From contig CAVSMG010000019.1 of assembly GCA_963728955.1 (NCBI GenBank), positions 104,275 through 168,274 of the forward strand: a stretch of DNA of 64,000 nt, given 5' to 3'. This document shows, one piece after another, positions 19,742-48,047 of this stretch. The stretch's first letter is position 1. Each line of letters opens with the position of its first letter. The notes under the pieces were generated by a model. It was not told the origin of the DNA, did not search any database, and saw nothing but the letters and a program-made list of their open reading frames with translations. This DNA comes from an uncultured Verrucomicrobiae bacterium (GTDB taxonomy: Bacteria > Verrucomicrobiota > Verrucomicrobiia > Chthoniobacterales > UBA10450). The translations under genes were made by a program, and so were the position numbers.

Positions 19742-20666
19742 ATGCCGAGACGCACTTACGAATTTGTTCAGGTTGACGTATTCACGCAGACGCCGCTGAC
19801 GGGTAATCCACTGGCTATCTTCAATGATGCTCGGGGATTAAATGATGCCGAGATGCAAGCGTTGGCGCGCGAGATGAATCTTTCGGAGACAACTTTCGTT
19901 TTTCCGCGCGATGCCGCCACTGAAACTCGGGACGGAAAAAAAGTCCGCATCTTCACGGTGGAGGAGGAGTTGCCGTTTGCAGGACATCCGACGCTTGGCA
20001 CGGCGTTGGCCTTGTACGCGTCTGAGTCTGATTCAATCAAACCTGTCCAGATCACCCTTGACTTGAAAGCGGGGAAGATTCCGGTGCGCTTCAGTCCGAA
20101 CCTGGACAATGCCGGCCGTAATCGCGTGGACGGACAGGTGTTCGGGGAAATGCGTCAACGCAATCCGGAAATTCGGAACTACGCTCTCACGAGAGGAGGT
20201 CGCTCGCGTCATTGGAATCGCCGTTGAGGAGATTCCTCCGGAATGGCCAATACAGTCTGTTTCGACAGGATTGACCTTTACGGTTGTGCCGTTCCGCAGT
20301 CAGCAGTCGCTCGGCGGTTTGAAGTTTACTTATGCGCAGGCGGCGGAATTTCTGAAGAAGACCGGTGCTAACTTCTTTTACTTTCTGTGTCCCGAACGGC
20401 GCGAAGACCACCTCGAAGTTCGAGCTCGAATGTTTTTCTATGGTGGGGAAGATCCTGCAACAGGCTCCGCGGCGGGCTGCGCAGCGAGTTGGATGGTCCG
20501 ACACGGAGTCGCCAAGAGTGATGAGCAGGTAGTGATTCGTCAGGGCATCGAGTGCCATCGCGCAAGCGAGATGTATGTCCGGGCAAAGCGGGAAGGGGAG
20601 TGCATCACTGACGTCCGCGTAGGCGGCTATGCCGTTGAAATTCTGCGCGGAACCGTGGTGCTGTGA
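19742..20666 (+). pseudogene. PhzF-family isomerase, one frameshift
   Basis: ORFs 19673-20227 and 20109-20666 together make a full PhzF fold (FVQVDVFT...GNPLAIF ... EDPATGSAAG). The frames rejoin as NPE-FGTTLSREE if one A of GGAAATTC (20169-20171) is removed. Confidence 0.8.
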
Positions 20667-20763
20667 GGAAACGCCCTTGTCGCCCGACGCGAAGCTCGCA
20701 TTAAACTGGCCGCGAAGAGTGAGCACCTTGCTAAGAGGTTTGGTTTTGCCGTATCCATAAAAC

Positions 20764-22359
20764 ATGGGGGCAGTTCTTCAAGAACCTTGTGACGAAAACG
20801 TAATTCGATCCGGGACGGCGACGGCGCCATGTTCGAAAGTTCGCGGTCGTTGGATTCTCGCCGCAACCGTTCTCGCGTCGAGCATGGCGTTTATCGATGG
20901 GACGGTCGTGAATGTGGCGCTGCCCGCGCTGCAAACGAATCTCAACGCCACGGCGGTGGATGTGCAATGGGTGATCGAGTCGTACGCGCTTTTTCTCTCT
21001 GCATTGCTGCTGGTCGGCGGCTCGTTAGGCGATCATTACGGACGTCGTCGCATCTTTTTGCTGGGTATTGTGATTTTTGCGGTTGCATCGGCGCATGCGG
21101 TCTTGCCGAAAATATTCGTCAATTGATCGTGGCCCGCGCGTTTCAGGGATGTGGCGCGGCACTTCTCGTTCCGGGGAGCCTTGCGATCATCAGTAATTCT
21201 TTCTCCGAGCAGGAACGTGGACGCGCAATTGGAGTATGGTCGGGCTTCAGCGCCATCACTACGGCAATTGGGCCCGTTCTCGGCGGATGGCTGATCGAGC
21301 ACGTTTCATGGCGCGCTGTGTTTTTCATCAATCTTCCGCTGGCCCTTGTTGTGATATTGATCTCGCTCCGCTACGTCGCAGAAAACTCGAACAGAGAACG
21401 GACTCGCGTCGACTGGCTTGGCGCAATCTTGGCCGCACTCGGTTTGGGCGCACTGGTTTACGGATTGATCGAATCCTCCCAAGCCGGTTTTAAGAATCAC
21501 ACAGTGATTATCGTTCTCACGGCAGGCATTGTCGTTTTGATCCTGTTTTTGTTTGTCCAGTTTCGTTTGTCGCAACCAATGTTGCCGCTGGACATTGTTT
21601 CGGTCTCGAACATTCGCCGGAACGAATTTCTTAACGTTTCTGCTTTATGCTGCGCTCGGGGGAACGCTTTTTTTCCTGCCGTTGAATCTGATTCAGGTTC
21701 AGCGCTATTCGCCGACTGCAGCTGGCGCGGCGCTATTGCCGTTCATATTGATCATGTCTTTTCTTTCGCGTTGGTCTGGTGGACTCGTTGCGCATTACGG
21801 TCCCAAGACTTCCGCTTGTCGTTGGACCAGTGATAGCGGCGGTGGGGTATTCGCTTTTCCTGGTGCCTGGGAATCGGGGGCAGTTACTGGACACAATTTT
21901 TTCCAGAGGTGGTTGTTTTGGGCCTGGGCATGGCCATCACCGTAGCGCCACTCACCACGACCGTCATGAGTTCGATCGCGCAAGACCGCGCCGGGATCGC
22001 ATCGGGCGTAAACAATGCCGTGGCGCGGACGGTCGAGCCTGATCGCGATTGCAGTGCTTGGAGTCGTGATGCTCCATGTGTTCAAAACAAATCTGGATCA
22101 CAGATTGAGCACTACGAATTTGCCGGCGTCAGTCGCGCAATCGCTGCAAACTCAATCGATAAAGCTCGCGGCCATCGATATTCCGGAAAATCTTAGCGCG
22201 GGAACACAACAGCTAATCCGTCGGGCAATCAACGAATCATTCGTCTCCGGGTTTCGGTCGGTCATGCTCATTGGGGCCGCGCTCGCCGCTGTAAGCGGAG
22301 TTACTGCGCTGTTTTGGATTAGAGTAACACCGCGCGTGCGCGCTGCTGAGAAAAGCTAA
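20764..22359 (+). pseudogene. MFS transporter (DHA2/EmrB-like, 14-TM type), at least 5 frameshifts
   Basis: Sensible MFS sequence hops through ORFs 20764, 20829, 21553, 21779, 21909 and 22015 (frames 1-0-1-2-0-1). Examples are FIDGTVVNVALPALQ, LIVARAFQGCGAALLVP and [20 protein letters not shown]. Confidence 0.8.
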
Positions 22360-33112: not shown

Positions 33113-33478
33113 CGGTAGCGAGAGCCTGCTCGCCGCCGCGATGCGTTGGCATTTAACGCGAGGGAAGAAAGTAGTAGCGAGCGGGCTTTCTTGAGTTTGG
33201 CAGTGACTTGTGGCGCAGACGAAGTGGCTATGAAACCGTCGGAAATTCTTACGCTAAGAGTGGCCGAGACATTACCTTGATAACTCGGGTCTTACGCGTG
33301 CGCCCGCCGTGACTTGGTCCCACAGGTGTCGGCATTCTTGTCATTCGGCGTGTCGGATGGAGCACTGTTGCCGAGCAATACTAACCTTTGGTACCCCTCT
33401 AATGAGACAGGCATTTATGCGAATTTCGTGTAGTTGGCATCGCGATTGCATTCAATTTCCAAGGTAGGAGAAATCAAC

Positions 33479-34024
33479 ATGACACGAACATCTAAGTCTA
33501 CCTTGGTTTGCATCGCTCTTTTTGGCGCGTTGCTGGCATTCGCCGACACTGCGCGCGCAGTGACGATCGGGAGCTCTAATGAGCTGGGTTTTGTTTTTCC
33601 CGGAATACCATCCAGCAATCAAGACAAAGAAAACTACGTCAACCATCTCATTGGCATGGCCCTTGGTGCGATCGATCTCGCCAATGGGCAAGTCTACCAA
33701 CGCTCAACCAATGCCTTTGGTGGGTTACCGAATGCCGTGTGGGCTCTCAATGGCGCTGGCACCAAAGTCAACCTTGGCGCCGGTAACTTGTACTCATATC
33801 TTTTGGTTACTTATATTGGCGTGGGCTCTAAAGTCTGGTACGTCGGTAATTTAAGTGGGACGATGACCATCCCGGGAGCGTCGTTCCTGACTCAATGGAC
33901 GCTCTTCGGACCAGGCGCGCCTGGCGTTCCAGACGGCGGCTCCGCCGCGATGCTACTCGGTGCGAGCCTTGCCGTGCTTGCCTTGGCGCAGCGCTTCCTG
34001 AAACGACGAGCAGTCGATACGTAA
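33479..34024 (+). CDS. Secreted protein with PEP-CTERM-like (VPDGGS) C-terminal sorting signal
   Basis: RBS aaggtaggag, then the signal peptide MTRTSKSTLVCIALFGALLAFADTARA. The C-terminus is VPDGGSAAMLLGASLAVLALAQRFLKRR (motif, TM, basic tail). Confidence 0.7.
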   Translation: MTRTSKSTLVCIALFGALLAFADTARAVTIGSSNELGFVFPGIPSSNQDKENYVNHLIGMALGAIDLANGQVYQRSTNAFGGLPNAVWALNGAGTKVNLGAGNLYSYLLVTYIGVGSKVWYVGNLSGTMTIPGASFLTQWTLFGPGAPGVPDGGSAAMLLGASLAVLALAQRFLKRRAVDT

Positions 34025-34339: not shown

Positions 34340-36109
34340 ATGCCCGCCCCAGCACGCCTGATTTCTCTCAATCTCGGATCTCAAACAATTGGTCTCGCGG
34401 AATTCCGAGTGGCCCATGGCAGTCTGGTCCTCGTAAATTATCGGTTACGCGAAACGCCGTTTGATCCCGAGACTGGCCAGCGGCGTGACCCGCACCTCGC
34501 TGTGACCGACACGGTCGCCGTGTTGCGCGACATGATGCGCGAAATGCAAATTCATGGCGGCCAGGTGAACTATGCAGTGCCTTCGCAATCCGTTTTTGCG
34601 CGCTTTGTAAAACTGCCGGCAATCGACGCGGCAAAGGTCGACAAGATCGTTGGATTCGAGGCGCAGCAAAATGTTCCCTTCCCAATCGACGAAGTTGTCT
34701 GGGATTACCAACTCGTCGGCGGCGGACTAGACGAACAAATTCAAGTGGTAATCGTCGCGATCAAGCGCGACTTGCTCGACGACATCAATAACGCCGTCGA
34801 AGAGACCGGATTGAGAACCCGAATCGTCAGTGTGGCGTCTGTCAGCCTCTACAACGCATTTCGTTACAACTATCCTGACATTGGCAACTGCTCGCTGCTG
34901 CTGGATATCGGCGCGCGCACCACCAACATTCTCTTCATCGAGCCGGGAAGATTTTTCCTGCGCAGCATTCCTCTTGGCGGCAGCACGATCACCGCGGGCG
35001 TTGCCAGGGAATTTAACGAATCATTCGCAGCAGCCGAAGAGCGCAAGAAACGGGACGGATTCGTCGGTTTAGGCGGCGCTTACGCCGAGCCTGCGGACCC
35101 AAATGTCGGACGCGTGTCGAAGATAGCGCGCAGCACCATGACTCGGTTGCATGCGGAATTGATGCGCTCTGTCACGCACTACCAGGCGCAACAGCGGGGA
35201 AATCGTCCGGCCCGCATTTTTCTTTGCGGTGGCGGCGCGGGCATGCCCTACATGCGCGAGTTCTTTCACGAGAAATTTCAGGTGCCGATTGAGATTTTTA
35301 ATCCGTTGCAAAACGTGACCGTGTCGAAGTCGGCGCCAAACCAGGATGTCGCGGCTTCTGCGCATTTGCTTGGTGAATTGGTTGGACTGGCATTGCGCAG
35401 CGTGACCGTTTGTCCGGTCGAATTGAATCTGCGTCCGGCGATCGTCGTTCGCAGGCACGACTTGGAAAAGCGCCGGACATTTTTTATCGCCGCCGCCGCG
35501 TGCATTCTGGTCGCACTACTGGGGTGGTCGGCGTATTACACGCGCGCGGCGCAGGTCGCTCAGCAAACTGCACAAATAATTCGCCAGAAGAACGACACCC
35601 TGCATCTGGCGGAAACGCAGTTGGACAAACTTAAAAAGCAAATTACGGCATTGGATAACGCAGCCACGCCACTTATCGCAGCCGTAAACGATCGCAATTT
35701 TTGGCCGCAGATTTTGGACGAACTAAATTCGCGCCTGCCGGAATCAGATATTTGGATCACGGAACTTGCCGCGACTTCCGGCGGAAAACTGCTTGGCGCT
35801 CCGGAAAAACGCGCCGGGGAAATTGCATCCACTCCTTCACCTCCGCCTGCCGGCAGCATAGCAAAGAGCGCGACTGCCGGGCCGAAGGCCATTGACGGCA
35901 TCAATGCGCACGGGCTTTACCTGTACAATCCGAAACAGCAGGAGATCGTGGTTGATTACCTGCGCAATCTCGCCCAGTCGCCGCTCTTTGCTGTCGATGC
36001 GAGGACCCCCGAACGCTTCATCAGATCCAATTCTGTCCCTAACGACACCGAATGGGCCTTTCCGTACGAGCTTCAGCTCACTCTGCGCAAACCGGCGAAA
36101 ATGCCATGA
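34340..36109 (+). CDS. PilM-like actin-fold ATPase fused to a PilN-like TM/coiled-coil/C-terminal domain (Amuc_1101-like)
   Basis: Intact 589-aa ORF. LNLGSQTIGLAEF..., VPSQSVFARFVKLPA and GFEAQQNVPFPIDEVVWDY fit PilM. A TM follows (FFIAAAACILVALLGWSAYY), then a coiled coil. Confidence 0.8.
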   Translation: MPAPARLISLNLGSQTIGLAEFRVAHGSLVLVNYRLRETPFDPETGQRRDPHLAVTDTVAVLRDMMREMQIHGGQVNYAVPSQSVFARFVKLPAIDAAKVDKIVGFEAQQNVPFPIDEVVWDYQLVGGGLDEQIQVVIVAIKRDLLDDINNAVEETGLRTRIVSVASVSLYNAFRYNYPDIGNCSLLLDIGARTTNILFIEPGRFFLRSIPLGGSTITAGVAREFNESFAAAEERKKRDGFVGLGGAYAEPADPNVGRVSKIARSTMTRLHAELMRSVTHYQAQQRGNRPARIFLCGGGAGMPYMREFFHEKFQVPIEIFNPLQNVTVSKSAPNQDVAASAHLLGELVGLALRSVTVCPVELNLRPAIVVRRHDLEKRRTFFIAAAACILVALLGWSAYYTRAAQVAQQTAQIIRQKNDTLHLAETQLDKLKKQITALDNAATPLIAAVNDRNFWPQILDELNSRLPESDIWITELAATSGGKLLGAPEKRAGEIASTPSPPPAGSIAKSATAGPKAIDGINAHGLYLYNPKQQEIVVDYLRNLAQSPLFAVDARTPERFIRSNSVPNDTEWAFPYELQLTLRKPAKMP

Positions 36110-36474
36110 AAGAGTCAACCACGGATAACACGGATGGATCGTTCACGAAGAGTAACCACGAATGGACACCAATGGACACGAATAGCGAAAAGCTTCTGCT
36201 CAAGGAGGAGGTGTTTCAGGTTGTCGGGTGCGCCATCGAGATTCTCAACACGCTTTGGCATGGTCTTCTTGAGAAGCCGTACGAAAATGCGTTGGTCGCA
36301 GAGTTTTCGCTACGAAAAATTCCATTTACGCAGTCCCGAAAGCTTTCGGGATTGAACTATCTCCGGGTCACAGGTCTCCGAGTTGGCGTGATCCTTAACT
36401 TCAGGCACCGGAAATTGGAATGGGAGAGGATCGCCTTAAAAAATTCGTGTCTATTCGTGTCCCTTCGTGGTTAA
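36106..36474 (+). pseudogene. GxxExxY (PD-(D/E)XK superfamily) protein, internally deleted copy
   Basis: The N-terminus is encoded by decamer repeats (NHEWTPMDTN). The GLLEKPY motif is present, but about 38 aa including the D...(D/E)xK core are missing relative to the copy at 37418. The start overlaps the pilM-like stop. Confidence 0.7.
36154..36472. mobile_element. GxxExxY cassette 1, bounded by 30-bp inverted decamer arrays
   Basis: Left array is AACCACGAATGGACACCAATGGACACGAAT (36154-36183). The right array at 36443-36472 has reverse complement AACCACGAAGGGACACGAATAGACACGAAT, about 27/30 identical. A cacggat-type array precedes it at 36117-36137. Confidence 0.6.
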
Positions 36475-36478
36475 TAAG

Positions 36479-37401
36479 ATGAAATGGTTTCAGCAAAACC
36501 GCGCGCTCGGAACCATTCTGCTCATTTCGGGAAGTTGCATCATCCTCGGCGCAGGTCTGCTTTACTGGAGGTGGAGTGTTTGGAGCGATGCCAAACAGAC
36601 GTTCGACCAGGCCACAGGCGAGCGCGACAGATTGCAGCGTCTCGATCCCTTTCCAAACGACGCGAACTACCGGAAATTGCAAGGCTACCTCGAGAGGTAC
36701 AAAGTCGCACTCGACAAGTTTAAAGACGAGCTAAAAGGCGAAATGGCGCCGGAGCCGGCGACTTGCGCCTAACGAATTCCAATCGCGTTTGCGCCAGGCT
36801 ACCCTCGCAACACAGGACCGGGCGCGCACGAACAATGTCAAATTGCCGGACAAATTTCAGCTCGGGTTCGACGAGTTCACCCGGACAATGCCTGGCACAG
36901 CCGTGACGCCGTTGCTTGGACAGGAACTCTCGCAAGTTCAAATGCTCATTAACATTTTGCTGGACGCGAAGGTGGACGGCATCCTGTCTTTCCACCGCCA
37001 TCCGTTGCCGCAGGAACATGGAGTATCCCCGACGCCGAAACCGCACCATCTCCAGGCCCGGCAGAAGAGTGGTGGCGGCGCGAAAACCTGGCGGGACGCC
37101 CGCGCCTGATTTGATCGAGCGCAATGTGGTCGATGTCACGTTCAAGGCTGCGCCCGGTGCAGCGCGAAGAGTGTTGAACGAAATCACAGGTTCCCGCGGG
37201 CAATTTTTCATCATCCGCACGCTGTACGTGCACGACGAAAAAGACAAAGGGCCGCCCCGCGAGAGAAACGCAAGCCCGACGCCGACGCCAGCCGCCGGGG
37301 CGAGTCCCGGTCAGTCACCCGCAGGCGCGCTGAACTTCATCGTTGGTAACGAGCACATCGAAGTCTCCGCCACGATCGAAATGCTGCGCTTTACCTTCTA
37401 A
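36479..37401 (+). pseudogene. Pilus-locus protein, Amuc_1100-like (N-terminal TM), two frameshifts
   Basis: Sensible sequence runs through frames of ORFs 36467, 36789 and 36916: MKWFQQNRALGTILLISGSCIILGAG (TM) ... KLPDKFQLGFDEF ... VVDVTFKAAPGAARRVLNEITGSRGQFFIIRTLYV ... IEMLRFTF. The family assignment comes from memory of Amuc_1100 and is tentative. Confidence 0.55.
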
Positions 37402-37832
37402 CCACGAATGGACACGAATGCACACCAATAAAGGGGTGCTCTTGTTCAAAGACGAGGTGTTCCAAATTGTCGGGTGTGCCATCGAAGTTCTGAATACGCT
37501 TGGGCATGGACTGTAGAGAAGCCTGTACCAAAACGCATTAGCAGTGGAGTTTGGGCTGAGGAAAATTCCTTTTCGGCAGCAACCGTCTTTCGACGTCGTT
37601 TACAAAGGACAAAAGGTTGGGCTGTTCATTCCTGACGTAATTGCTTTCGATTCGATCGTTGTCGACACAAAGGTAATTGATCGAATCACCGATCACGAAC
37701 GAGGTCTGATATTGAACTACCTACGCATCACGGGTCTTCGTGTTGGCGTAATCCTAAACTTCAAGCACAGGAAATTAGAGTGGGAGAGGATTGCCTTATA
37801 AAATTCGTGTCTATTCGTGTTCATTCGTGGTT
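37400..37832. mobile_element. GxxExxY cassette 2, bounded by 30-bp inverted decamer arrays
   Basis: Left array is AACCACGAATGGACACGAATGCACACCAAT (37400-37429). The right array at 37803-37832 has reverse complement AACCACGAATGAACACGAATAGACACGAAT, about 26/30 identical. The left end overlaps the stop of the upstream gene. Confidence 0.6.
37418..37801 (+). pseudogene. GxxExxY (PD-(D/E)XK superfamily) protein, full length but with an in-frame TAG in the signature motif
   Basis: MHTNKGVLLFKDEVFQIVGCAIEVLNTLGHGL-TAG(37514-37516)-RSLYQNALAVEF... Copy 1 reads GLLEKPYENAL here. Two compensating 1-nt indels flank the TAG. The remainder (PDVIAFDSIVVDTK...LNYLRITGLRVGVILNF) is intact. Confidence 0.7.
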
Positions 37833-37843
37833 AATCATTACCC

Positions 37844-38798
37844 ATGGCGAAAGCAATGGACTGGCTTAAGGCGAATTACGATCGCGCGCTGTTGATTGCC
37901 GCCGCGGCTTTTCTTTTTGTTACTGCGGTGGCCATTTGGTGGAGCGCCATCCAGTTCGGTAACCGACTGGTCGCTCCTCCGGCGGTTGCAGCCGAAGACG
38001 GCGTCGCAGCCGCCTGTGGCGGTCGAGCTGGATGACGCTGCGGAGCAACTCCATAAGCCGCTGCAATGGAAATCCACCACGCACTCCGGTCTGTTCGTTC
38101 CGGAAAAACATTTCATCGGGGCCGACGGCATGCCGGCTACGCTGCAAAACACGCAGGTGCATGCGCCGGTGCCTAACGAGTGGTTCGAAAAATACGCCTT
38201 GCCCATCGAAGACGCCGACGCTCTCGAGCAGGACCCGGACAAGGACGGCTTCACTAATCTCGACGAATGGCAGGGCAACACCGATCCGACCAACGCCGGG
38301 TCGCACCCGGATTACACCACGAAATTACGTTTAGTGTCCGCCAACGAGGAACCGTTCGCGTACATGTTTGCGTCGCGCACAAGAGACAACTTCGGCATCA
38401 ACAGCATCGACGAGACTGAACCGACCCAATTCCTGAAAGTCGGCGGCGTCATCCGCGGCACCGATTTCAAGATCGTCAGGTTTACGGAGAAAAAGGAACC
38501 CAATCAGTACGGAATTAAGATGGACGTATCGGAGTTGCTGCTCGAACACCAGAGCAGTCACGTGCAGGTCACATTGGTGAAAGGAAAACTCGCCACCTCG
38601 CCGCAATCCGTAGCCACGTTCGTTTACACCTGGGGCGGCCGGAAGGAATTCGAAGTGCGCAAAGACCAGGAGTTTCCTCTTGCCACCGCTGAAGGCAATC
38701 GGACGTACAAGCTCATCGACGTGCGCCCGGACAGGGCCGGGATCGTAAACACCCAAAACCCGGGTACGCCGATCGAGATTGGCTTCGCGAACCCGTGA
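37844..38798 (+). pseudogene. Pilus-locus protein with N-terminal TM and DPDKDGFTNLDEW (thrombospondin-type-3-like) motif (Amuc_1099-like), one frameshift
   Basis: The ORF 37844-38035 (MAKAMDWLKANYDRALLIAAAAFLFVTAVAIWW) continues in the frame of ORF 37896-38798 after about position 37990. Confidence 0.55.
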
Positions 38799-38806
38799 GG
38801 ATCTCT

Positions 38807-38874
38807 AACCACGAATTTACACGAATGGACACGAATTACAGGGAGGACCACGGATTACACGGATATCACGGATG
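38807..38874. repeat. Solo decamer arrays (cacgaat type followed by cacggat type)
   Basis: AACCACGAATTTACACGAATGGACACGAAT (38807-38836) followed by CCACGGATTACACGGATATCACGGATGG (38847-38874). No partner inverted array or GxxExxY gene is present. Confidence 0.7.
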
Positions 38875-39391
38875 GCCTGACAGAATGTACAAAATTAACA
38901 AAATCCATTGAAACTCGCTCGGCTCCCGCCTTACTCGGCGCTACCCATCGCGCCTTTACCTTCCATCTCGGAAACCCCATTTCCTCGATTCTGAGAATTC
39001 TGTTCATTCTGTCGAAAAAATCTGCGCCATCCCCCGCCTCCGCTGCGTCCTTCACGGTGTAAGAGGGAGTGCGTTTCGGCGAGGGCGCCGAAACCAACTC
39101 GTGTCATCCGGTGGTTCCGCATCTTCCTTAGGCCAAAAATCTTAAGAAATTTTCCTTGAACCTCGTAGAAGAGATCGAGTAAAAGCGCCTCAAATGTGCA
39201 TAGTTGCGAGCCGGAAACTACGGATTTGAAACTCGCTCATTTCCCAGTTGCTCGCTGCTACCCCTCGCGGCTCTGCCTTGTATCTCGCTGATCCCATCAG
39301 CTCGGTCCACGCATGCACACACTCAGAAGGACCAAGTGAGCCATATGAAAACCACCCGGAACGTAATAATCGTTGCAGTAGCGCGCGCTCC

Positions 39392-39441
39392 TGTAGGGCG
39401 TCTGTGCCAGACGCCATGGCGTTTCACAGAAACGCCCTACA
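39392..39441. repeat. REP element, TGTAGGGCG family
   Basis: TGTAGGGCGTCTGTGCCAGACGCC-ATGGC-GTTTCACAGAAACGCCCTACA. It lies just upstream of the inferred secretin start codon. Confidence 0.8.
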
Positions 39442-39450
39442 AGAGAATGC

Positions 39451-42170
39451 ATGCCGCGTTCGCGGTTTGCGCCGCGCTCTTTGCTCATCATCTTCTTCCT
39501 CCGCGGTCGCGCAGAACGCCGACAGCATCGCCGATCGCGAAGTGCAGCGGCGTCAGGCTGCTATGCCGGAAGGCGAAGCTGCGCTGGCGCGCGGCAAGTC
39601 CGCACTGAGATCGAAAAATTACACCGTCGCGTACCAGGAATTTAAGACTGCCATCGGCTATCTGCCGGATGCAGTCGTGTCCGGGAAAGCGCACGACGAA
39701 GCGGCGGAAGGGGTTTGCAAAAGCGGCACCGTTTTGGCCGAAGCACGGATTGCTCAGGGCGATTACCCCGGGGCCGAAGCGATCCTGAACGAAATCTTAA
39801 CCCGTTACGATCCCAATTGCCGCAAGGCGCAGGACCTTTTCGCGCATTTGCGCACGCCGGGTTACTTCAACAAAACGGTGGACCCCGGCTTCACCAACAA
39901 AGTCGAGGAAGTGAAACGTCTGCTCGCCGAAGCCGACGGCTTTTATCAATCCGGGCAGTACGATAAGGCGATGAAAAGCTATGACAAGGTGCTGGCGCTC
40001 GATCCGTACAACACCGCGGCGCGCAAAGGCCAGGAAAAAATCGACAACACCAAATACCAGTACGGCGAGGAAGCGTACAACGAGACGCGGGCGCGCAAGC
40101 TATGGAAAGTCGAAGAAGCATGGCAACAACCGGTCAGGAAATATGGCGCTGTGGGCCCGGTCGCTGACAACAAAGGGCGAGGGGAAGTGCGCGGTACCGC
40201 GCAGATGACCAACAAACTGAATAGCATCATCATCCCGCACCTGGAATTTCGCGATACCACGTATTCGCGAGGCGATCGATTTTCTTCGGGAGCAGGCAGC
40301 CGAGAACGATCCTTCGGGACAGGGCGTAAACATTGTGCTGCGGCTCGTTCCTCTCGGACAAGTTGCGCCGCCTTCAATGCCAGTCGTGCTGCCGACCGGT
40401 ACCGGCACGCCCGGAGCAGGTGCCCGCCGGTAACCACACCGCCCGCAGGGGCGCCCGCGCAGGGCGCTCCTGGCGCGTCGCCAGGGCGCAGCGCCCGTTC
40501 CGGCCCGGCCGGGTGCGCGCATCACCGTGACGCTGGATAACATTCCACTCGGTGAAGCGTTGCGGTACGTCGCTGCCCAAGCCGGATTAAAAGTGAAAGT
40601 CGAACCGTATGCGGTTACACTTATTCCTCTCAGCGAGCAAAGCAACGATCTGATCACAAAGCGATATCACGTGCCGCCGGAATTTTTCGGCGGGCCACTT
40701 GATGTCGGTTACTACATCGGAAGCAGTGTGGCCGGTGGTGGCGGCAGGGCGCTGGCACGACGACCGGAATTCGGAGGAGCCACCCGTGGCGACCAGCGTT
40801 ATTGAGAAGGAAGCAGTAAGCTTTCAGACCGCTTCCGGAATCGGCACCGGCGCTGGTGCTTCGAGCCAGTGCAAACCAATTGCAAGGCACTGCCAGCTAC
40901 TCGCCAGACGTTGCAGAACGATCGTCAACTCGTCGGGCGAGCCGACGCGATAACGATGTTGAAGAGCATGGGCGTCTCGTTTCCTGCCGGCGCGAGCGCA
41001 ACCTTCTGGCCGCATAGCGGGACGCTGATCGTGCGCAACACACAGGACAATCTGGACATGGTGGACGCGTTGGTTGATCAGGCGAATTCGTCGGCGCCCA
41101 ACAGGTCGAGATCGAATCGAAGTTTGTCGAGATTAATCAAAACAATCTTAAGGAACTTGGCTTCGACTGGTTATTGGGTCCGTTTAGCACTAATGGCAAA
41201 GTTTTCGGTGCAGGTGGAACCGCTGGCAACGGCGCCCCTGTCAACCGCGGCGAATTTTCCGTTCAATGATGCGAACGGGAATCCGATTGGACAAAACCCG
41301 GTCACGTCCGGAAATCGCAGCGGTAATTTCGCGATCAGCGCCAACGCGCTCGATGCGCTTTTGATGCCAGGTCTTGGGCAAGTTGCTGGCGTCGCTCCGG
41401 GAATCTTTGGATTGGCCGGGGTTTTCACCAATCCACAATTTCAGGTCGTGATTCGCGCGCTCAATCAAAAGAAAGGCATCGACCTTCTTTCCGCGCCCAG
41501 TGTGACCACAAAGAGCGGCCAGCGCGCCATTATCGAAGTCATTCAGAGAGTTGCGTTATCCTAGGACATACACTCAGCCGCAGGTTCCATCCGATGTAGC
41601 TAGCCACTCTGGTGGGCGCCGACGACCGTTCCTGTGGTGGTTACTCCGACGACGCCTCAAGACTGGGAGACGCGAAACACTGGTGTGACGCTGGAAGTCG
41701 AGCCAGTAGTTGGCGGGGATGCACGACGATCGATCTCAACTTGGTTCCGCAGGTCGTCGAGTTCGAGGGGTTCATCAATTACGGCAGCCCGATTTTTGCA
41801 GTCGGCGTCAATACTGCGGCTGGGATATCGATTTCCAACCGGTTCTGCTCACTCCAATGCAATAAATCAGCCGGTCTTCAGCACTCGCAAGGTGACCACA
41901 AGCGTGAGCGTTTATGACGGGCAAACGGTCGTATTGGGTGGGTTGATGCGTGAAGACGTTCAGAAAACTGAGGATAAGGTTCCCATCATTGGCGACATTC
42001 CATTTGTCGGCAGGGCGTTTCGCACTAACACGGAGCAGCATACCAAAAAGAATTTGGTCATTTTCGTCACCGCGCACATCATCACGCCCGCAGGTGTGCC
42101 GTTGAACGAGGAAGAAGAGGAAGGCCTGCTGCCGCCCGAGCTGCCGGAAGTGCCGGCGTATAAGAAATAG
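39451..42170 (+). pseudogene. Outer-membrane secretin (type II/III secretion / PilQ-like, Amuc_1098-like) with N-terminal TPR region, at least 10 frame changes
   Basis: The signal peptide MPRSRFAPRSLLIIFFL(AVAQ) is followed by a TPR region (YQSGQYDKAMKSYDKVLALDPYN). Next come LEFRDTT/IREAIDFLREQ and a secretin core: QVEIESKFVEINQNNLKELGFDW, NPQFQVVIRALNQKKGIDLLSAPSVTTKSGQRA, VTLEVEPVV. The core ends YDGQTVVLGGLMRED...KVPIIGDIPFVGRAF...KKNLVIFVTAHII. These segments are spread over all three frames. Confidence 0.75.
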
Positions 42171-42218: not shown

Positions 42219-43748
42219 GTGAAAAAAACAAATTAACCCTTCAGTTAAGGCGCACCTTTTCCGGAGCGCGCTGGTTCTGCTTTCACTGGTGACTTTCAGC
42301 CAGGATATCTTCTGTCAGACGCCGAAGCTCCACGCCACTCCCACGGCGACGGCAGAGTGCTTTAGGCCCCCACCGGGAGCGTGTGTATGGTATGAAGCGG
42401 AGTCGCCTATTTGCCCCCCAAATCCCCAAGCCGGAGACCGATGTAACATCCTGGAGGGAAGCGCCATCGTTCTAAGCTGCCCGACATGCTCCGAACGGAA
42501 AAAAGGTAAGTTACGTGGGCAGCAACGATGGTAATCTGCAGTTCAATGCTGTCGGTGTTGTCGCAACGGGCAATTACACCGTGACGATCTGCTACCTCAA
42601 CGGAGACGCGGTGCGCTACGCCTATCTGAGCGTGAACGGCGGTCCAGGAATGCCTGTGACCTTTCCCTCCACTGGCTCGTTTGAGACTCTGGGGTCAATA
42701 CAGGTAACCGTCACTTTAAACACGGGTTGCAACACGCTTAAGTTCTACAATCCGATCGTTGGTAGCTGGGCGCCGGATTTCGATCGGATTCAATTCAACT
42801 GCCCGACCTGCGCGCTGCCTGCACCCACGCCCACGCCTACGCCTACATCCACGCCAGCACCAACCCCTACACCAGACGGGTGCTATCCCAATTTCACGAC
42901 AGCGGAAGGATGCGATGCGCTTAGTCTCCTCGCCACAGGCGCCGGAAATGCAGGGCTTGGTTGGCGTTCGCTCTTTTTGGATACGACCGGCGGCTTCAAC
43001 ACCGGTGTTGGCGGCGGAGCGCTGGCGCTCAACAACGGGGATTCCAATACGGCGGTGGGCGCTGCAGCGTTGTTGCTCAATACCAGCGGCACAAACAACA
43101 CCGGCGTTGGAACCGACGCGCTCGTCTTTAACGACAGCGGTGACTCCAACACTGCCACCGGTTACTTTACGCTCATGAACAATACCACCGGCGGCTTCAA
43201 CACGGCCATCGGTTCGGAAGCGCTCACTGCCAACACCAGCGGGAACAACAACACAGCCACCGGTGATCTCGCGCTCACAGAACACCGAAACCACGAGCCA
43301 CCATGTTGCATAGGCAAAATGGCCGGGTCTGGTATCACCACCGCCAATAACAACATCATCATCGGTCACCACTCTGGCGTGCACACTGTTTTTGGCCAGG
43401 AAAGCGACAGGTGCTTTATCGACAACATCCCCGGTGCGCCGGTTTCCGCCGCGACGGCAATGCCGTGATGGTCGATTCCGATGGAAGATTGGGCACTGTC
43501 ACCGCCGAAGGACCGGCCCGGGTGGATTTTCGCTCAAAGGCATCCGGCCCCAAGCCATTCCCGATGCCGCCAAGCAAGCGATGCTCAATCTCGAAGTTCA
43601 AAAGTTGCGGACAACGATCTCGCAACAACAGAACCAAATAGAAATGCTCACCGCCCGGCTGAAAGAGCAAACCGCACAAATCCAGAAAGTGAATGCCCAG
43701 CTCGAAATGCGTAAGCCGGCAGCCAAAGTGATTGTGAACAAACTGTAA
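42219..43748 (+). pseudogene. Secreted protein: CBM6/35-like domain, Pro/Thr linker, Hep_Hag/YadA-head-like NTA-G repeats, C-terminal coiled coil; at least 4 frameshifts
   Basis: GTG start plus signal peptide (MKKQINPSVKAHLFRSALVLLSLVTFSQD) if the A7 run at 42222-42228 is read as A6. Then YEAES...VSYVGSNDGNLQFNAV...LSVNG...APDFDRIQF, PTPTPTPTSTPAPTPTP, repeats of NTAVGAAAL/NTGVGTDAL type, and LNLEVQKLRTTISQQQNQIEMLTARLKEQ. Confidence 0.65.
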
Positions 43749-43782
43749 AACTGTTCAAAACAATGAAACGAAATCAAAAAAG

Positions 43783-44747
43783 ATGAAAAATCGAAGTACG
43801 ATATTGATGGTCATCCTGCCGGTGTTAGCCTGCTTCGCGCTTTTGCCAGCAGCGCGGGCGGTCAGTCCGGCACCGGATGGATGCTATCCCAATTTCACGA
43901 CAGCCGAAGGGTGCGATGCGCTTAGTTTCCTCACCACCGGCGCTGGAAATACAGCGCTTGGTTGGCGATCGCTCTTTTCAGATACCACCGGCAGCTTCAA
44001 CACCGGCGTTGGCGCTGGGGCGCTGGTCCTCAACAACGGGAGCTCCAATACCGCAGTGGGCGCTGCAGCGTTGTTGCTCAACACCACGGCCTCAAATAAT
44101 ACGGCCGTTGGAACTGACACACTCGTCTTTAATGACAGCGGTGCCTCTAACACTGCCACTGGTTACTTTGCGCTCATGAACAATACCATCGGCGGCTCTA
44201 ACACAGCCATCGGTTCGGAAGCGCTCACTGCTAATACCAGCGGAAACAACAACACGGCCATCGGCAATCTGGCGCTTAAGAACAGCGAAACCACGAGCGA
44301 TAACGTTGTCGTAGGCACAAGGCCGGGTCTGGCATCACCACCGCTAATAACAATATCATCATCGGCCACCACTCTGGTGTGCACAGTGTTTTCGGCCAGG
44401 AAAGTGACAGATGCTTTATCGACAATATCTCCGGTGCACCGGTTTCCGCCGCGACGGCCGCTATAGTGATGGTCGATTCCGATGGACGACTGGGCACGGT
44501 CACCGCCGATGGACCTGAGCTGGGTGGATTTTCGCCCAAAGGCATCCGGCCCCCAGCCATTCCCGATGCCGCCAAGCAAGCCATGCTCAATCTCGAAGTT
44601 CAAAAGTTGCGGGCAACGGTCACGCAGCAACAGCAACAAATAGAGAAGCTCACAGTCCAACTGAAAGAGCAGGCTGCGCGAATCCAGAAAGCGAATGCCC
44701 AGCTCGAAATGCGCCAGCCGGAGACAAAAGTGGTCGACAAACCTTAA
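43783..44747 (+). pseudogene. Paralog of the preceding gene without the CBM: signal peptide, Hep_Hag-like repeats, coiled coil; one frameshift
   Basis: MKNRSTILMVILPVLACFALLPAARA, then DGCYPNFTTAEGCDALSFL... The frame changes near 44320 and continues as AGSGITTANNNIIIGHHSG...CFIDNISGAPVSAATA...LNLEVQKLRATVTQQQQQIEKL. Confidence 0.65.
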
Positions 44748-45407: not shown

Positions 45408-46023
45408 ATGAAAATAAAAATAAATAAATCCCCCTCAGCATTCACCCTTATTGAGTTGCTGGTCGTGATTGCGATTATCGCAATTCTGGCCGCACTGGCA
45501 GTGCCCGCATTAACGTCGGCGCTCGCCAAGGCTCAACAGACCGGCACCATGAACAACGCCCGCCAGCTTTACTTGGCACAATTCCAAATGTCGAATGACG
45601 GCGCAGCAACCGGCGACGCCACTTCAGCGTGGCCTGGCGACCTTCCTGCGCGTTCCAGCGACCGTTAGTGGATTATCTTAACGTGCTGTGTTGGAAAAGG
45701 TTACCTAAAAGGTGGCGACGCTATCAAGCTCTTCAACGCTCCTGGTGCCTCGTTCACCGCCACGGTGACGACCACAAATGGTATCGACCAGCTAACCGTT
45801 GCTGCTGGGACAGCGCCGCCCTGAAAGTTTGGCCAACCAGAGACGTGGATCCTGCGACGACGATTTTTTCCACCAGCAAAAACTACGTCTATGACACCGC
45901 CATAGTGGCAGGATCTGTTCCGTACGGTACCAAAGGGTTTCATCACGATGCAGAAAGGCGGCGACGCGAGCTGTCTTTAGGGTAGGCCAGGCCACTAGCT
46001 GGCGGTTGGGCGCGGTGCGGTGA
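45408..46023 (+). pseudogene. Prepilin-type N-terminal cleavage/methylation domain protein (pseudopilin-like), several frameshifts; 3' end uncertain
   Basis: [35 protein letters not shown]. Downstream sense sequence (YLKGGDAIKLFNAPGASFTATV; TIFSTSKNYVYDTAIVAGSVPYGTKGF) is scattered over three frames. Confidence 0.7.
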
Positions 46024-46160
46024 GGTAACATTCCAGAATGCAGTCGGCTCTAAGCACCGGAGATCCTCTGGAGCACCGTCAGTCCTGGCGATCCTACCTC
46101 TGCCCTTCGCTGACCTCTCACCTTCTAAAGCGACCCTGGCTCGTTTAGTTTGGTTAACTC

Positions 46161-46353: not shown

Positions 46354-46622
46354 GTGCAATTCGAGTTCGATCCGTGGAAGAGCGAGAACAAGAAGGCAAA
46401 ACACACGGAATCGATTTTGTCGAAGCGCAGGCGCTCTGGAAATCGAAGCACGTACTTCTCGACGCCAAAGACGTTTTAGAAAAGCGATATATGGTCATCG
46501 GGAGAATCGGCAGCGAACATTGGTCGGCGATTATCACCTATCGCGGCGCGGCAATTCGGATTATTAGTGTAAGGAGATCCACCGCAGTGGAGATCGAGAC
46601 GTATGAAAAAATCGCAGGATAA
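46354..46622 (+). pseudogene. BrnT-family (DUF497) toxin, frameshifted near its N-terminus
   Basis: GTG-QFEFDPWKSENKKAKH in one frame joins GIDFVEAQALW...IRIISVRRSTAVEIETYE in the next, at a CACAC tract around 46405. Confidence 0.65.
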
Positions 46623-46824
46623 CCAGACAACAGCGAAGAACCTCGAAGAGAAATTCGACCGAGGCGAAGATGTGCTCGATTATTTTGATCTACGCAAAGC
46701 GCGCCTTGTCGATCCACAACCCAATAAGAACGGTAAAGAAAAATTTCCTCATCCGATAAAGCGAAGCTCCAAGCGTACAGCGGTCGTTCGAGAAAAACCG
46801 GCGCGCTATCCGAAAAAGAAATAG
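46603..46824 (+). CDS. BrnA/CopG-like antitoxin
   Basis: 73-aa ORF overlapping the BrnT stop. It contains LEEKFDRGEDVLDYFDL, the pattern I recall for BrnA-type antitoxins. Confidence 0.6.
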   Translation: MKKSQDNQTTAKNLEEKFDRGEDVLDYFDLRKARLVDPQPNKNGKEKFPHPIKRSSKRTAVVREKPARYPKKK

Positions 46825-47284: not shown

Positions 47285-47632
47285 AACCACGAATTCACCA
47301 GCCTTCACATCGTTACGGCTTGGCAAGCACGAATGGGACATCAATGTTTACGGAAAGTGGACGACCAAGTTCTGCCCGTGATATCCCGTTTTGTAACCAC
47401 GAATTCACCAGCCTTCACATCGTTACGGCTTGGCAAGCACGAATGGACACCAATTGGCAGACAATCAGACAACCACGGATGATACGGATTTCACGGATGG
47501 TCGAAGAATGACGAAGCAGGACTCTGGCTGCTTGTAACCACGAATTCACCAGCCTTCACATCGTTACGGCTTGGCAAGCACGAATGGACACCAATTGGCA
47601 GACAATCAGACAACCACGGATGATACGGATTT
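47285..47632. repeat. Three tandem copies of a 56-bp core (AACCACGAATTCACCAGCCTTCACATCGTTACGGCTTGGCAAGCACGAATGG) with variable tails
   Basis: Copies start at 47285, 47395 and 47536, giving periods of 110 and 141 bp. Copies 2 and 3 share a further roughly 40 bp (ACACCAATTGGCAGACAATCAGACAACCACGGATGATACGGATTT). Confidence 0.8.
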
Positions 47633-47674
47633 TGAAATTCGCTCTTTCCCAAGTCGCTCTTCGCTACCCTCGCC

Positions 47675-47931
47675 GTGATCGGCAAAGCGGATCGGCGCTT
47701 CTGGAGATCCTTCGAAAAATTACCCGTGCCTGTGAGAAGTTGGCGCGTGAAAAATACGCGCTCTGGAAGCGCGACCCCTATCACTCGTCGCTCCATTTTG
47801 AAGAGCGCCGCAACGGCGTCTGTGTTGTTCGTATCGGAGAACATTACCGTGCGCCAGGGCTGCGTGAACAGGAAGTCGTCGCCTGGTTCTGGATCGGCAC
47901 GCATGAGGAATATAACCGATTCCGGTTTTGA
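47675..47931 (+). pseudogene. Small RelE/ParE-superfamily-like toxin (WFWIG-H-EY family), frameshifted in an A5 run
   Basis: GTG-IGKADRRFWRSFEK in one frame joins ITRACEKLAREKYALWKRDPYHSSLHFEE...RIGEHYRAPG...VAWFWIGTHEEYNRF in the next if the A5 run at 47725-47729 is read as A6. Confidence 0.5.
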
Positions 47932-48021: not shown

Positions 48022-48047
48022 GCGTCCATTGGCGTCCATTAGTGGTT
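48022..48047. repeat. Decamer array variant (AATGGACGCC units), inverse orientation
   Basis: GCGTCCATTGGCGTCCATTAGTGGTT. Its reverse complement is AACCACTAATGGACGCCAATGGACGC. Confidence 0.55.

Follow-up and report, generated by a model that had tools for sequence, protein, structure and literature searches.

Why are three of the four genes of an apparent pilus/secretin operon from a soil bacterium broken, and what are the small cassettes between them? These questions arise at positions 34340–42170 (+ strand) of the 64-kb stretch of DNA that we analysed (the window). The host is Candidatus Udaeobacter (Chthoniobacterales, Verrucomicrobiota), from soil. On sequence evidence, this region is the soil-bacterium version of the known Amuc_1101–1098 pilus/secretin operon of Akkermansia. 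We regard it as quite probable that the locus combines a Udaeobacter orthologue of Amuc_1101–1098, artefactual frameshifts, multi-copy GxxExxY elements in the junctions, and a PilMNOPQ-like scaffold as the product. The features are:

34340–36109, +, Amuc_1101-family PilM-like actin-fold protein (589 aa, intact)
36106–36478, +, junction 1 cassette: remnant of a GxxExxY/PDDEXK_3 gene (TIGR04256, 58.9 bits, in two stretches)
36479–37401, +, Amuc_1100-family (PilO/PilN-like) protein, N-terminally anchored; two single-base frameshifts
37399–37833, +, junction 2 cassette: GxxExxY PD-(D/E)XK element, with the gene at 37418–37801 (TIGR04256, 73.7 bits; PF13366, 67.6 bits)
37844–38798, +, Amuc_1099-family anchored protein; one single-base frameshift near 37994
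38799–39446, no strand, junction 3: repeat debris (end units and a palindrome) with no cassette ORF
39447–42170 (alternative start 39345), +, Amuc_1098-family TPR-secretin; 15 single-base frameshifts, no in-frame stop
42223–44747, +, two tandem paralogous surface-type genes (1-kb spacing, 85–87% identical, both frame-broken)
45408–46110, +, gene with a prepilin-type N-terminal methylation motif (PF07963 N_methyl, 34.4 bits; 11-residue motif)

Four protein families in a conserved order

On the + strand, the PilM-like Amuc_1101 is followed by Amuc_1100, Amuc_1099, and the Amuc_1098 TPR-secretin. In profile searches, all four matched their NCBIfam families, with E-values between 1e-50 and 1e-246; two of the four are slightly under the equivalog cut-offs (612 vs. 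650 bits for Amuc_1101 and 172 vs. 180 bits for Amuc_1100). A preliminary description of this DNA had proposed these families and this gene order, and the matches in NCBIfam, Pfam, and the PDB bear it out. All five of the parts that it listed, including the genes downstream, lie where it had placed them, well above chance. The order is kept in every sufficiently long locus among 82 related ones (L001–L082). In distant Chthoniobacterales, the operon is compact, with an ATGA overlap.

As the sequence stands, only the PilM-like gene has an open frame, as had been described. It aligns to its orthologues in L001 and L002 at 88–89% identity with zero frameshifts, and its dN/dS is 0.156. The match to NF045709 (Amuc_1101_fam) covers profile positions 3–607 of 608, and the protein also matches TIGR01175 (PilM; 142.8 bits, cut-off 133) and PF11104 (PilM_2). 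Its actin-fold part is fused to a transmembrane helix, a coiled coil, and a C-terminal domain that appears weakly PilN-like, as suggested by a sub-threshold Pfam match (PilN, E = 0.0056, 17 bits, under the gathering score) and a low-confidence model.

The Amuc_1100-like gene is spread over three frames, with frameshifts near 36761 and near 37044–37058. The ORF pieces match positions 1–93, 111–198, and 198–323 of profile NF038287, and in a frameshift-aware alignment the gene is 87–89% identical to L001 and L002. Once repaired, it scores 172.2 bits with full-length coverage (cut-off 180) and matches the structure of Amuc_1100 (PDB 6KNY/6LAD, E = 1e-7).

The Amuc_1099-like protein (317 aa) carries a DPDKDGFTNLDEW motif and a DPDKDGFTNLDE loop that resembles EF-hand/TSP3 loops, and its C-terminal region is rich in beta structure. 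Against NF042425 (cut-off 50), the fragment scores 164 bits and the repaired protein scores 186.5 bits. One frameshift appears in the alignments to L001 and L002, and it is present in the public record as well, because the deposited gene call is a truncated 260-aa product. The AlphaFold model has a mean pLDDT of 70.9 (about 80–88 for residues 110–267), and a fold search of the PDB with this model gave no match (best E = 0.04). As judged only by gene position, the Amuc_1099 homologue probably has a PilP-like role.

The likely true start of the secretin is the ATG at 39447; gene callers for the relatives use an upstream ATG (39345). Its pieces match positions 17–271, 398–611, and 649–804 of profile NF042912. 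After repair, the protein reaches 818 bits against a cut-off of 750, and the secretin domain is recognized by Pfam (PF00263, 100.7 bits).

Flanking genes and missing components

The two repeat/coiled-coil genes and the prepilin-like gene that had been reported downstream are those at 42223–44747 and from 45408. Both tandem genes encode a C-terminal coiled coil as well as repeats of the NTAxGxxAL type, and the first has a CBM13-like N-terminus (41.9 bits). They also show sub-threshold matches to coiled-coil families and direct repeats (D1, D3, D5, and D9). The prepilin-type gene has about 8 frame events relative to L001:20641–21339 (frameshift-aware alignment). It is syntenic with an intact 232-aa gene of L001, and this L001 copy matches a generic pilin N-terminal domain only.

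The preliminary description was right that no PilB, PilC, or PilT gene is adjacent: there is none in the 64 kb. A scan of the window for Walker A motifs of the PilB/PilT type yielded only ClpX, and none of the large ORFs has a T2SSE or T2SSF domain. But this does not imply minimal machinery, as had been concluded. Classical pilMNOPQ operons are normally apart from pilB/C/D/T, so the absence of an adjacent ATPase says little. The 64-kb window also has no detectable homologue of Amuc_1102; in 35 related Chthoniobacterales loci, such a homologue lies directly upstream. The locus was said to mirror the Akkermansia cluster, and it does so in that Amuc_1101–1098 are present in order, but Amuc_1102, which is also in the Akkermansia cluster, is missing.

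Sequencing errors or gene decay?

Frameshift-aware protein-to-DNA alignment against intact orthologues gave 2 frameshifts in the Amuc_1100-like gene, 1 in the Amuc_1099-like gene, and 15 in the secretin gene (18 in total), where about 2, 1, and at least 10 had been estimated. There are more within the following 4 kb. Judging from the assembled contig, the most likely source of these 18 frameshifts is single-base indel error in sequencing or assembly that was left uncorrected, and the organism itself probably has an intact operon. Alternatively, the frameshifts could be real, in which case this population recently inactivated the operon and its neighbors, and the locus is a decaying array of pseudogenes.

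Assembly error, and not the heavily frameshifted biological state that was first described, is indicated by the indel pattern, the signature of selection, the damage to unrelated genes, and a correlation with sequencing platform. Every frame-breaking event is exactly +1 or −1 nt and lies outside homopolymers, and insertions and deletions are roughly balanced, with no deletion bias. The 15 events in the secretin gene (at sites including 40262 and 40746) fall at the same places whether L002 or a second reference, L003, is used. Despite 15 indels over 2.8 kb, the repaired secretin frame has no stop codon, and the repaired frames of the other two damaged genes have zero as well. The repaired secretin has a dN/dS of 0.108 relative to L002. 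Furthermore, across 914 sites of the secretin, amino-acid changes specific to one lineage are fewer in the window (15) than in its intact relatives (17 in L002, 35 in L003, and 43 in L001). The same kind of indel is found at 19.7–22.4 kb in unrelated genes for PhzF (1) and an MFS transporter (5). Judging by ORF layout, the ORFs at 22.8–36.1 kb and elsewhere in the window are long, unbroken, and matched by Pfam along their length.

Frame breaks also follow the sequencing platform across the 82 related loci, with platform classed by record name. For the four genes, we counted 26 frame switches over 98.5 kb of Nanopore-only MFD loci vs. 4 over 299.5 kb of short-read loci, or about 20-fold more in Nanopore-only assemblies. 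(The MFD MAGs were assembled with Flye, followed by one round of polishing with Medaka.)

Some observations favor real decay: the frameshifts do stand in the deposited contig, as the 260-aa call shows; they are concentrated in patches instead of being evenly spread; and a 117-bp deletion in the first cassette is atypical of read error. Because the indels are dense (about 3 per kb, or about ten times the mean of other long-read loci) and patchily clustered, the explanation by sequencing error has to assume something local, for instance very low coverage. The frameshifts would be consistent with a poorly covered part of a long-read metagenome assembly. Overall, we consider recent inactivation to be unlikely.

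The junction cassettes

Both cassette ORFs score above the cut-off for the GxxExxY family (TIGR04256 / Pfam PDDEXK_3) of small proteins with a PD-(D/E)XK nuclease fold. As in that family, they are of about 127 aa, with GxxExxY and PD...DTK motifs in the intact copies. Both cassettes are compositionally distinct, lie exactly between genes in the same orientation as the operon, and are bounded by terminal inverted repeats of about 31 bp that are built from three 10-bp units.

Cassette 1 (family match at 36106–36474; inverted repeats at 36150–36183 and 36443–36473) lacks its catalytic core: DNA alignment to L001 shows that about 117 bp inside the gene have been deleted in frame. In cassette 2, the left repeat (37399–37429) begins at the stop codon of the Amuc_1100-like gene and the right repeat is at 37803–37833; this inverted repeat (I4) is 31 nt and 87% complementary. 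Its gene has an in-frame TAG at 37514, which DNA alignment traces to a compensating −1/+1 pair of indels about 11 nt apart. Compared to the junction-2 copy of L001, it has 93.7% amino-acid identity with one stop, about 96% DNA identity, and a dN/dS of 0.36. Junction 3 retains end units of the CACGAAT and CACGGAT types (38806–38875) and a 58-nt palindrome (39388–39445) just 5' of the ATG at 39447. The same type of palindrome is found in junction 1 of L020.

The operon had been described as interrupted by foreign cassettes. Two distinct cassettes do sit exactly in the junctions, but no gene is interrupted, and relatives share the junction copies. Cassettes of the same type (type A) are at the corresponding junctions in L001, L002, L013, and L048; L001, L002, and L048 are the closest relatives. 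In 13 other loci, these junctions hold a second GxxExxY lineage (type B), found in other Udaeobacter genomes, which shares about 40% identity with type A and ends in repeats of a different kind. Because the cassettes are intergenic, co-oriented, and at the same junctions in close relatives, we conclude that they are old, recurrent residents of the operon junctions. From their distribution, they are a multi-copy element family of this lineage that has recurrently occupied these junctions.

We also considered that the GxxExxY genes might not be selfish but a functional accessory of the pilus, such as a nuclease that acts on DNA or another polymer imported via the secretin. In every case they point in the direction of the operon, the ORFs show purifying selection, and the catalytic PD...DTK residues do not vary among the copies. 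Across the 82 related loci and the window, at least 27 of about 29 detected copies are in junctions 1 or 2. Among 80 metagenome loci with the nearest type A relatives, 38 are in this operon; however, the other 42 are at other recurrent, co-oriented intergenic sites. This same lineage is found at unrelated junctions: folB|argH, HlyD|ABC ATPase, after serS, and MFS|msrB (with neighbors named by eye). An accessory role also seems inconsistent with the ORF-less elements (110–300 bp, with identical ends) that fill the same junctions in other genomes, with the absence of cassettes from many Udaeobacter operons and from all distant Chthoniobacterales operons, with the use of two unrelated types of end repeat, and with the lack of a signal peptide in the GxxExxY proteins. 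We think that such a role is improbable and favor a recurrent element family.

Steczkiewicz et al. (2012) listed the function of the GxxExxY family as unknown. The few papers that name the family do not mention genes enclosed by terminal inverted repeats with three 10-bp units each, their constant co-orientation with flanking genes, or ORF-less derivatives that share the element ends. REP/BIME elements and MITEs are similar in being short, bounded by inverted repeats, gathered in operon junctions without disrupting genes, and present in ORF-less versions. In contrast, a conserved PD-(D/E)XK gene is found in many of the copies here, which would not be mobilised in trans by a RAYT.

Relationship to known systems and a proposed role

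The Amuc_1098–1102 cluster has been described in the Akkermansia literature, where Amuc_1100 was found to resemble PilO/PilN structurally, and this locus (MUL2) is needed for mucin acquisition. In Akkermansia, Amuc_1102 is a putative fibre subunit. The window shares four of the five families with MUL2 of Akkermansia muciniphila, in the same order and on one strand; the repaired Amuc_1100 homologue aligns to 6KNY; and no ATPase is adjacent. In contrast to MUL2, the window has no Amuc_1102-family gene in its 64 kb, all three junctions are enlarged by GxxExxY cassettes or repeat debris, two proteins are just under the equivalog cut-offs, and the deposited sequence is frame-broken. The hosts also differ: Akkermansia is a gut mucin specialist, while Udaeobacter lives in soil.

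Like the type IVa PilM-N-O-P-Q systems of Pseudomonas, Myxococcus, and Thermus, the operon encodes an actin-fold PilM, single-pass partners with periplasmic coiled coils, and a C-terminal secretin domain, with the ATPase and platform genes outside the operon. It differs in that PilM and the PilN-like part are in one polypeptide, the Amuc_1100 family is at the PilO position, the protein at the PilP position (317 aa) has a DxDxDG loop and shows no detectable PilP fold, and the N-terminus of the secretin has TPRs instead of AMIN domains.

We propose that the products assemble into an envelope-spanning scaffold that corresponds to the PilM-N-O-P-Q alignment subcomplex of type IV pili together with their secretin. 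In the fusion protein, a coiled coil and a single transmembrane helix would link the cytoplasmic actin-fold PilM domain to a PilN-like domain in the periplasm, and the partner of this fusion would be the Amuc_1100 homologue, which is PilO/PilN-like and anchored in the membrane. The Amuc_1099 homologue, also anchored and with a Ca-binding-type DxDxDG loop and a beta-rich C-terminal region, would take the place of PilP and probably forms the link to the TPR-secretin of the outer membrane. Genes for the ATPase, platform protein, and fibre subunit would have to lie elsewhere. The pilus/secretin system itself is a known one, then, and it is only the pattern of cassettes that is mildly novel.

Genes of the pilus/secretin operon

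The ORF map of the 34-48 kb region has a single long frame (34340-36109, 589 amino acids), followed by many short overlapping ORFs on the + strand. We identified the genes by scanning the ORFs with profiles from NCBIfam and Pfam.

Features of the pilus/secretin locus (window positions)
34340-36109, + strand: PilM-like gene of the Amuc_1101 family/PilM, 589 amino acids
36052-36474, between pilus-gene pieces: GxxExxY/PDDEXK_3 fragment
36467-37401, + strand: three ORFs covering consecutive stretches of the Amuc_1100-family profile
37544-37801, between pilus-gene pieces: GxxExxY/PDDEXK_3 fragment
37896-38798, + strand: match to the Amuc_1099-family profile
39248-42170, + strand: three ORFs of the TPR-secretin, corresponding to positions 17-271, 398-611, and 649-804 of the 805-position Amuc_1098-family profile

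The PilM-like protein matches NF045709 over its full length (E = 1e-183, 612 bits, short of the equivalog cutoff of 650) and exceeds the cutoff for PilM itself (TIGR01175; 142.8 bits, cutoff 133). Its homologs number in the thousands. For the other three genes we scored repaired proteins, that is, conceptual translations after frame correction. The repaired Amuc_1100-like protein covers positions 1-323 of the 326 positions in NF038287 (E = 2e-50, 172.2 bits, cutoff 180), and it aligns with crystal structures of Amuc_1100 (PDB 6KNY and 6LAD, E = 1e-7). Judging by sequence similarity, it is clearly a homolog of Amuc_1100, with a score marginally under the curated equivalog level. The repaired Amuc_1099-like protein and the repaired secretin are both above the cutoffs for their families (NF042425, 186.5 bits, cutoff 50; NF042912, 818.2 bits, cutoff 750). 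The Secretin domain (PF00263) is found in the last secretin fragment even without repair (100.7 bits).

The four genes are co-linear on one strand, in the order 1101 > 1100 > 1099 > 1098. The preliminary description had likened the locus to the Amuc_1098-1101 cluster of Akkermansia, and both the family scans of the repaired proteins and the gene order agree. Because the repaired proteins are significantly similar to the Amuc families and to the Amuc_1100 structures, and the secretin has its domain, the family assignments stand. This is a known system, correctly identified in a new lineage.

Conservation of the four-gene core

A scan of genomes puts the window in Candidatus Udaeobacter, a member of Chthoniobacterales. 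Two closely related loci (L001 and L002), both on long contigs, have PilM-like proteins that are 89% and 88% identical to that of the window. Their layout is also that of the window (PilM-like / PDDEXK_3 / Amuc_1100 / PDDEXK_3 / 317-amino-acid protein / TPR-secretin), and their genes are intact, except that the L001 secretin was called as two pieces (777 and 185 amino acids). A comparison of synteny found the order PilM-like > Amuc_1100-like > Amuc_1099-like > TPR-secretin in every related locus of sufficient length. The operon is compact in more distant Chthoniobacterales, where junction 1 (PilM-like|Amuc_1100-like) is an ATGA stop/start overlap, junction 2 (Amuc_1100-like|Amuc_1099-like) is about -10 to +20 bp, and junction 3 (Amuc_1099-like|secretin) is about -40 to 0 bp.

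The Akkermansia cluster includes Amuc_1102 (MUL2A, pilin-like), whereas the window and the core Udaeobacter loci do not have a gene from this family. In the 64-kb window, tblastn with nine Chthoniobacterales proteins gave a best hit of only E = 0.5, and the 10 kb on either side of the core Udaeobacter loci contained no such gene. The gene upstream of PilM-like encodes a VPDSG-CTERM protein in the window (33434-34024) and differs among the core Udaeobacter loci. In 35 related loci from distant Chthoniobacterales (including L028, L030, L038, and L041), an Amuc_1102-family gene is directly upstream of PilM-like. The representative from L028 scores 75.6 bits against NF042424 (cutoff 55) and matches PDB 7DSZ; the remaining 34 were assigned by grouping with the L028 gene by sequence similarity. 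A 2026 paper described the Akkermansia cluster (MUL2) as "less conserved" in Chthoniobacterales. In our comparison of predicted genes, by contrast, it is the Amuc_1102 gene that varies in this group, and the core of four genes is well conserved.

Origin of the frameshifts

We counted frame corrections with a custom-written, frameshift-aware protein-to-DNA alignment, using the L001 and L002 proteins as guides. Corrections number 2 in the Amuc_1100-like gene (36479-37401), 1 in the Amuc_1099-like gene (37844-38798), and 15 in the secretin (to 42170), versus an earlier estimate of about 2, 1, and at least 10. For the secretin, an independent short-read reference (L003) recovered the identical 15 positions. 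Every event is a 1-nt insertion or deletion, and the two kinds are roughly balanced. Homopolymers are ruled out as the cause, as the contexts of the indels are not homopolymeric.

A genuine array of pseudogenes should show stop codons in the repaired frames, a raised dN/dS, an excess of amino acid replacements, or indels of varied sizes, and we saw none of these. In the three pilus genes, the frames after repair contain 0 stop codons. Against L002, the repaired secretin has a dN/dS of 0.108, lower than the 0.156 of the intact PilM-like gene. If the secretin had drifted for long enough to accumulate 15 indels, then more lineage-specific changes would be expected. The window's secretin shows the opposite: in a four-way comparison at 914 sites, it has 15 lineage-specific amino acid changes, versus 17 for L002, 35 for L003, and 43 for L001.

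The single-base damage extends downstream into a prepilin-like gene. There is also a second error-rich patch at 19742-22356, where a PhzF-like gene has 1 event and an MFS transporter has 5 events in 1.6 kb; these are single-base events too, with no stop codons and a dN/dS of 0.17. Long, unbroken ORFs with Pfam matches along their length are found from 22.8 to 36.1 kb and over most of the remaining window (as judged from ORF layout, not from alignment to a reference). The errors thus cluster in patches with a density of about 3 per kb, close to the rate of indels in one modern Nanopore read.

Frame switches also track the sequencing platform. For each of the 82 related loci, we tallied the changes of frame from one tblastn segment of a pilus gene to the next, over all four genes, and we took the platform class from the record names. 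The Nanopore-only class, with names that mark Microflora Danica-style assemblies, has 26 frame switches in 98.5 kb (17 loci) and the short-read class has 4 in 299.5 kb (65 loci), a 20-fold difference. Microflora Danica MAGs are assembled with Flye and polished once with Medaka (PMC12313526). In the annotation of the window itself, the Amuc_1099 fragment is called as a truncated product of 260 amino acids on a 257-kb contig, so the frame errors are part of the record as deposited and did not arise afterwards. (A reference-free Viterbi scan for frame switches, based on codon usage, is not counted as evidence, because gene boundaries confound it and it responds poorly to indels that are close together.)

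The locus had been described as heavily frameshifted, as if this were its biological state. From the 1-nt events, the low dN/dS, the unrelated genes affected, and the link to platform, we infer that the frameshifts are most likely an artifact of assembly. In a MAG built from long reads, frameshifts that follow one another through a gene-dense stretch can mimic pseudogenization, and tests of selection together with cross-platform comparison can expose the artifact.

A proposed role for the operon

Our best reading is that the operon would encode the PilM-N-O-P-Q alignment subcomplex and its secretin in a verrucomicrobial form, because of the proteins' family membership and the published PilO/PilN-like structure of Amuc_1100. 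The predicted proteins show the PilM fold family, a transmembrane helix, homology to Amuc_1100, the secretin domain, and TPR repeats. For the PilO position of the type IVa PilMNOPQ system, the likeness in our analysis is one of homology to the Amuc_1100 entries in PDB; the PilO-like fold of the Amuc_1100-like protein comes from the literature.

The C-terminal part of the PilM-like protein matches PilN (PF05137) with E = 0.0056 and 17.1 bits, which is less than the gathering score (22.8). AlphaFold gave a model of the last 239 amino acids that is too poor for a fold search (pLDDT 51.5), but a transmembrane helix and a long helix are present. From the subthreshold match and this unusable model, we infer that the fused domain may be PilN-like.

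Given the position of its gene, the Amuc_1099 homolog would act as a bridge, as PilP does. A PilP-like beta-sandwich is unsupported, as the model has no fold match in PDB: Foldseek gave no hits with E ≤ 0.001 (best E = 0.04, best TM-score about 0.15). A sequence search of PDB with this protein gave no match either. The model of the homolog (37995-38795) has a pLDDT of 70.9 overall and about 80-88 in the beta-rich C-terminal region, whose fold or arrangement of domains may be new. The DPDKDGFTNLDE loop of the Amuc_1099-like protein fits the 12-residue pattern of EF-hand/TSP3 calcium loops, and the Amuc_1099 family has this canonical motif (DxDxDG...E). There is a precomputed TSP3_bac match on one relative, and the Pfam match in the window's protein has only E = 0.48; the loop is a putative calcium-binding site.

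As first described, no genes for PilB, PilC, PilT, or prepilin peptidase are adjacent, and we found none in the 64-kb window. But this absence says little, because classical pilMNOPQ operons are likewise apart from the pilB, pilC, and pilT genes.

In Akkermansia, the MUL2 cluster is abundant in the envelope, is linked with pili-like structures, and is required for the acquisition of mucin. By analogy, one may reasonably guess that the operon serves in attachment or in taking up polymers in soil.

GxxExxY cassettes at operon junctions

The cassettes in junctions 1 and 2 (cassettes 1 and 2) are about 435 bp each and belong to the GxxExxY family (TIGR04256; 58.9 and 73.7 bits, cutoff 35). The left end, TAACCACGAATGGACACGAATGCACACCAAT, consists of three 10-bp units and includes the cassette's ATG; at junction 2, its first TAA is the stop codon of the Amuc_1100-like gene. 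The right end, ATTCGTGTCTATTCGTGTTCATTCGTGGTTA, is the reverse complement of the left end and lies 10-15 bp ahead of the next gene's start. The 18-mer core of these ends occurs 15 times in the window, versus 0.07 expected by chance. Filled junctions repeat an ATGAA-like start region, and the alignments do not rigorously define a target-site duplication.

Cassette 1 has lost the core with PD...(D/E)xK through an in-frame deletion of about 117 bp. Cassette 2 retains PDVIAF...VVDTK and is otherwise intact apart from a -1/+1 pair of indels, about 11 nt apart, that strikes the GxxExxY motif and yields its one "stop." Its DNA is about 96% identical to the copy in L001 (by our own count), and the flanking segments are 88.7% and 91.3% identical (by blastn). 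Its dN/dS is 0.36. The catalytic residues of PD...DTK are invariant among the cassette proteins we compared. A sequence search of PDB with the GxxExxY protein gave no match. Scans of the locus for promoters and terminators gave counts at or under the shuffled expectation, and an Rfam scan of 33-48.5 kb gave nothing above noise.

Type A GxxExxY genes, with CACGAAT-type ends, are found in the window and in L001, L002, L013, L015, and L048. Type B genes, which are about 40% identical to type A and have CCACGGAT-type ends, are found in 13 loci. Other operon junctions are either empty or occupied by elements of 110-300 bp that have these ends but no ORF. Within the operon, all of the GxxExxY copies have the orientation of the operon. 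In a tree of the cassette proteins, the junction-1 and junction-2 copies were inherited orthologously in the group of the window, L001, and L002; L048 shows similarity within the genome, and the type B copies are mixed.

In a scan of metagenomes for the closest relatives of type A, 38 of 80 loci were in the operon (junction 1, junction 2, or just past the secretin). The other 42 were at other recurrent sites between housekeeping genes, namely folB|argH, HlyD|ABC ATPase, after serS, and MFS|msrB (we named these neighbors by eye from their sequences). The metagenomic cassettes have the same orientation as their left neighbor in 37 of 39 cases and as their right neighbor in 31 of 39, and the gaps to the adjoining genes are mostly 6-47 bp.

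The two cassettes do lie precisely in intergenic junctions, as the preliminary description held. It called them foreign, but their occupancy, tree, and metagenomic sites argue against recent insertion in this genome only: they are members of a recurrent multi-copy family of operon junctions in this lineage, and the pilus/secretin operon is one of its favorite sites. The "interruption" of the operon is a conserved, gene-sparing pattern and is modestly interesting by itself.

The literature on GxxExxY/PDDEXK_3 proteins has only incidental mentions, with the function given as unknown, and we found no account of their packaging between inverted repeats. The cassette could be a selfish element, its inverted repeats could have a role at the RNA level, or the nuclease could act on its own ends. 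Tentatively, the cassettes might be an undescribed class of small, orientation-specific elements of Udaeobacter operon junctions. Each would comprise a PD-(D/E)XK nuclease gene between ends of three 10-bp units that resemble binding sites, with ORF-less, MITE-like derivatives that share the same ends. Two independent lineages (CACGAAT-type and CACGGAT-type) would have repeatedly colonized the same pilus/secretin junctions without breaking the operon.

Repeats and variable genes around the locus

CACGAAT-type 10-bp end units also occur beyond the operon, at 15661-15688, 47437-47454, 47578-47595, and 48028-48045. Near a ParE-like gene is a pair of 101-nt direct repeats (47391-47491 and 47532-47632) that are 100% identical and begin 141 nt from each other. 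These units and repeats could be further repeat elements or a local duplication in the assembly.

A 58-nt palindrome (39388-39445; GTAGGGCGTCTG...CAGACGCC...GGCGTTTCACAGAAACGCCCTAC) immediately precedes what is likely the true start of the secretin (ATG at 39447). In relatives such as L001, the secretin calls begin inside the palindrome, so their N-termini are probably over-extended. The same type of palindrome is in junction 1 of another related locus (L020:11880-11960).

Downstream of the secretin are two tandem repeat/coiled-coil genes (42223-44747), 85-87% identical and 1 kb apart. The first opens with a CBM13-like segment, which is homologous to a 708-amino-acid CBM protein in L002 (L002:15057-17183) that is placed between the Amuc_1099-like gene and the secretin. 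The repeat/coiled-coil and CBM genes are variable surface-protein cargo that shifts around the operon. Farther downstream are a BrnT toxin/BrnA antitoxin pair and a ParE-like toxin gene (46374-46824 and 47584-47931), and the corresponding neighborhood in relatives has HicB and HepT-like genes, which makes this a variable region rich in toxin-antitoxin genes.

Elsewhere in the window, the B12-binding and activation domains of a MetH-like ORF (11156-14479, - strand, 1107 amino acids) are separated by an in-frame insert of about 200 amino acids (at about 12070-12680) that is free of stop codons. The insert matches the IS200/RAYT-like Y1 transposase domain (PF01797, 28.5 bits) and carries an HUH motif and a YIARNP motif; no inverted repeat was found flanking it. 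The homocysteine-binding domain is encoded by a separate ORF (14454-15590) upstream of the MetH-like ORF.

Implications

The cassette pattern provides a concrete entry point to the widespread GxxExxY family. As for the operon, almost all study of the Amuc_1100/Amuc_1098 cluster so far has been in Akkermansia from the gut. The order of the 1101-1100-1099-1098 core is conserved in the abundant soil Udaeobacter and across Chthoniobacterales, with the Amuc_1102 gene variably present. Conservation of the core in soil helps to tell an ancestral function as an envelope machine from host signaling that is specific to the gut.
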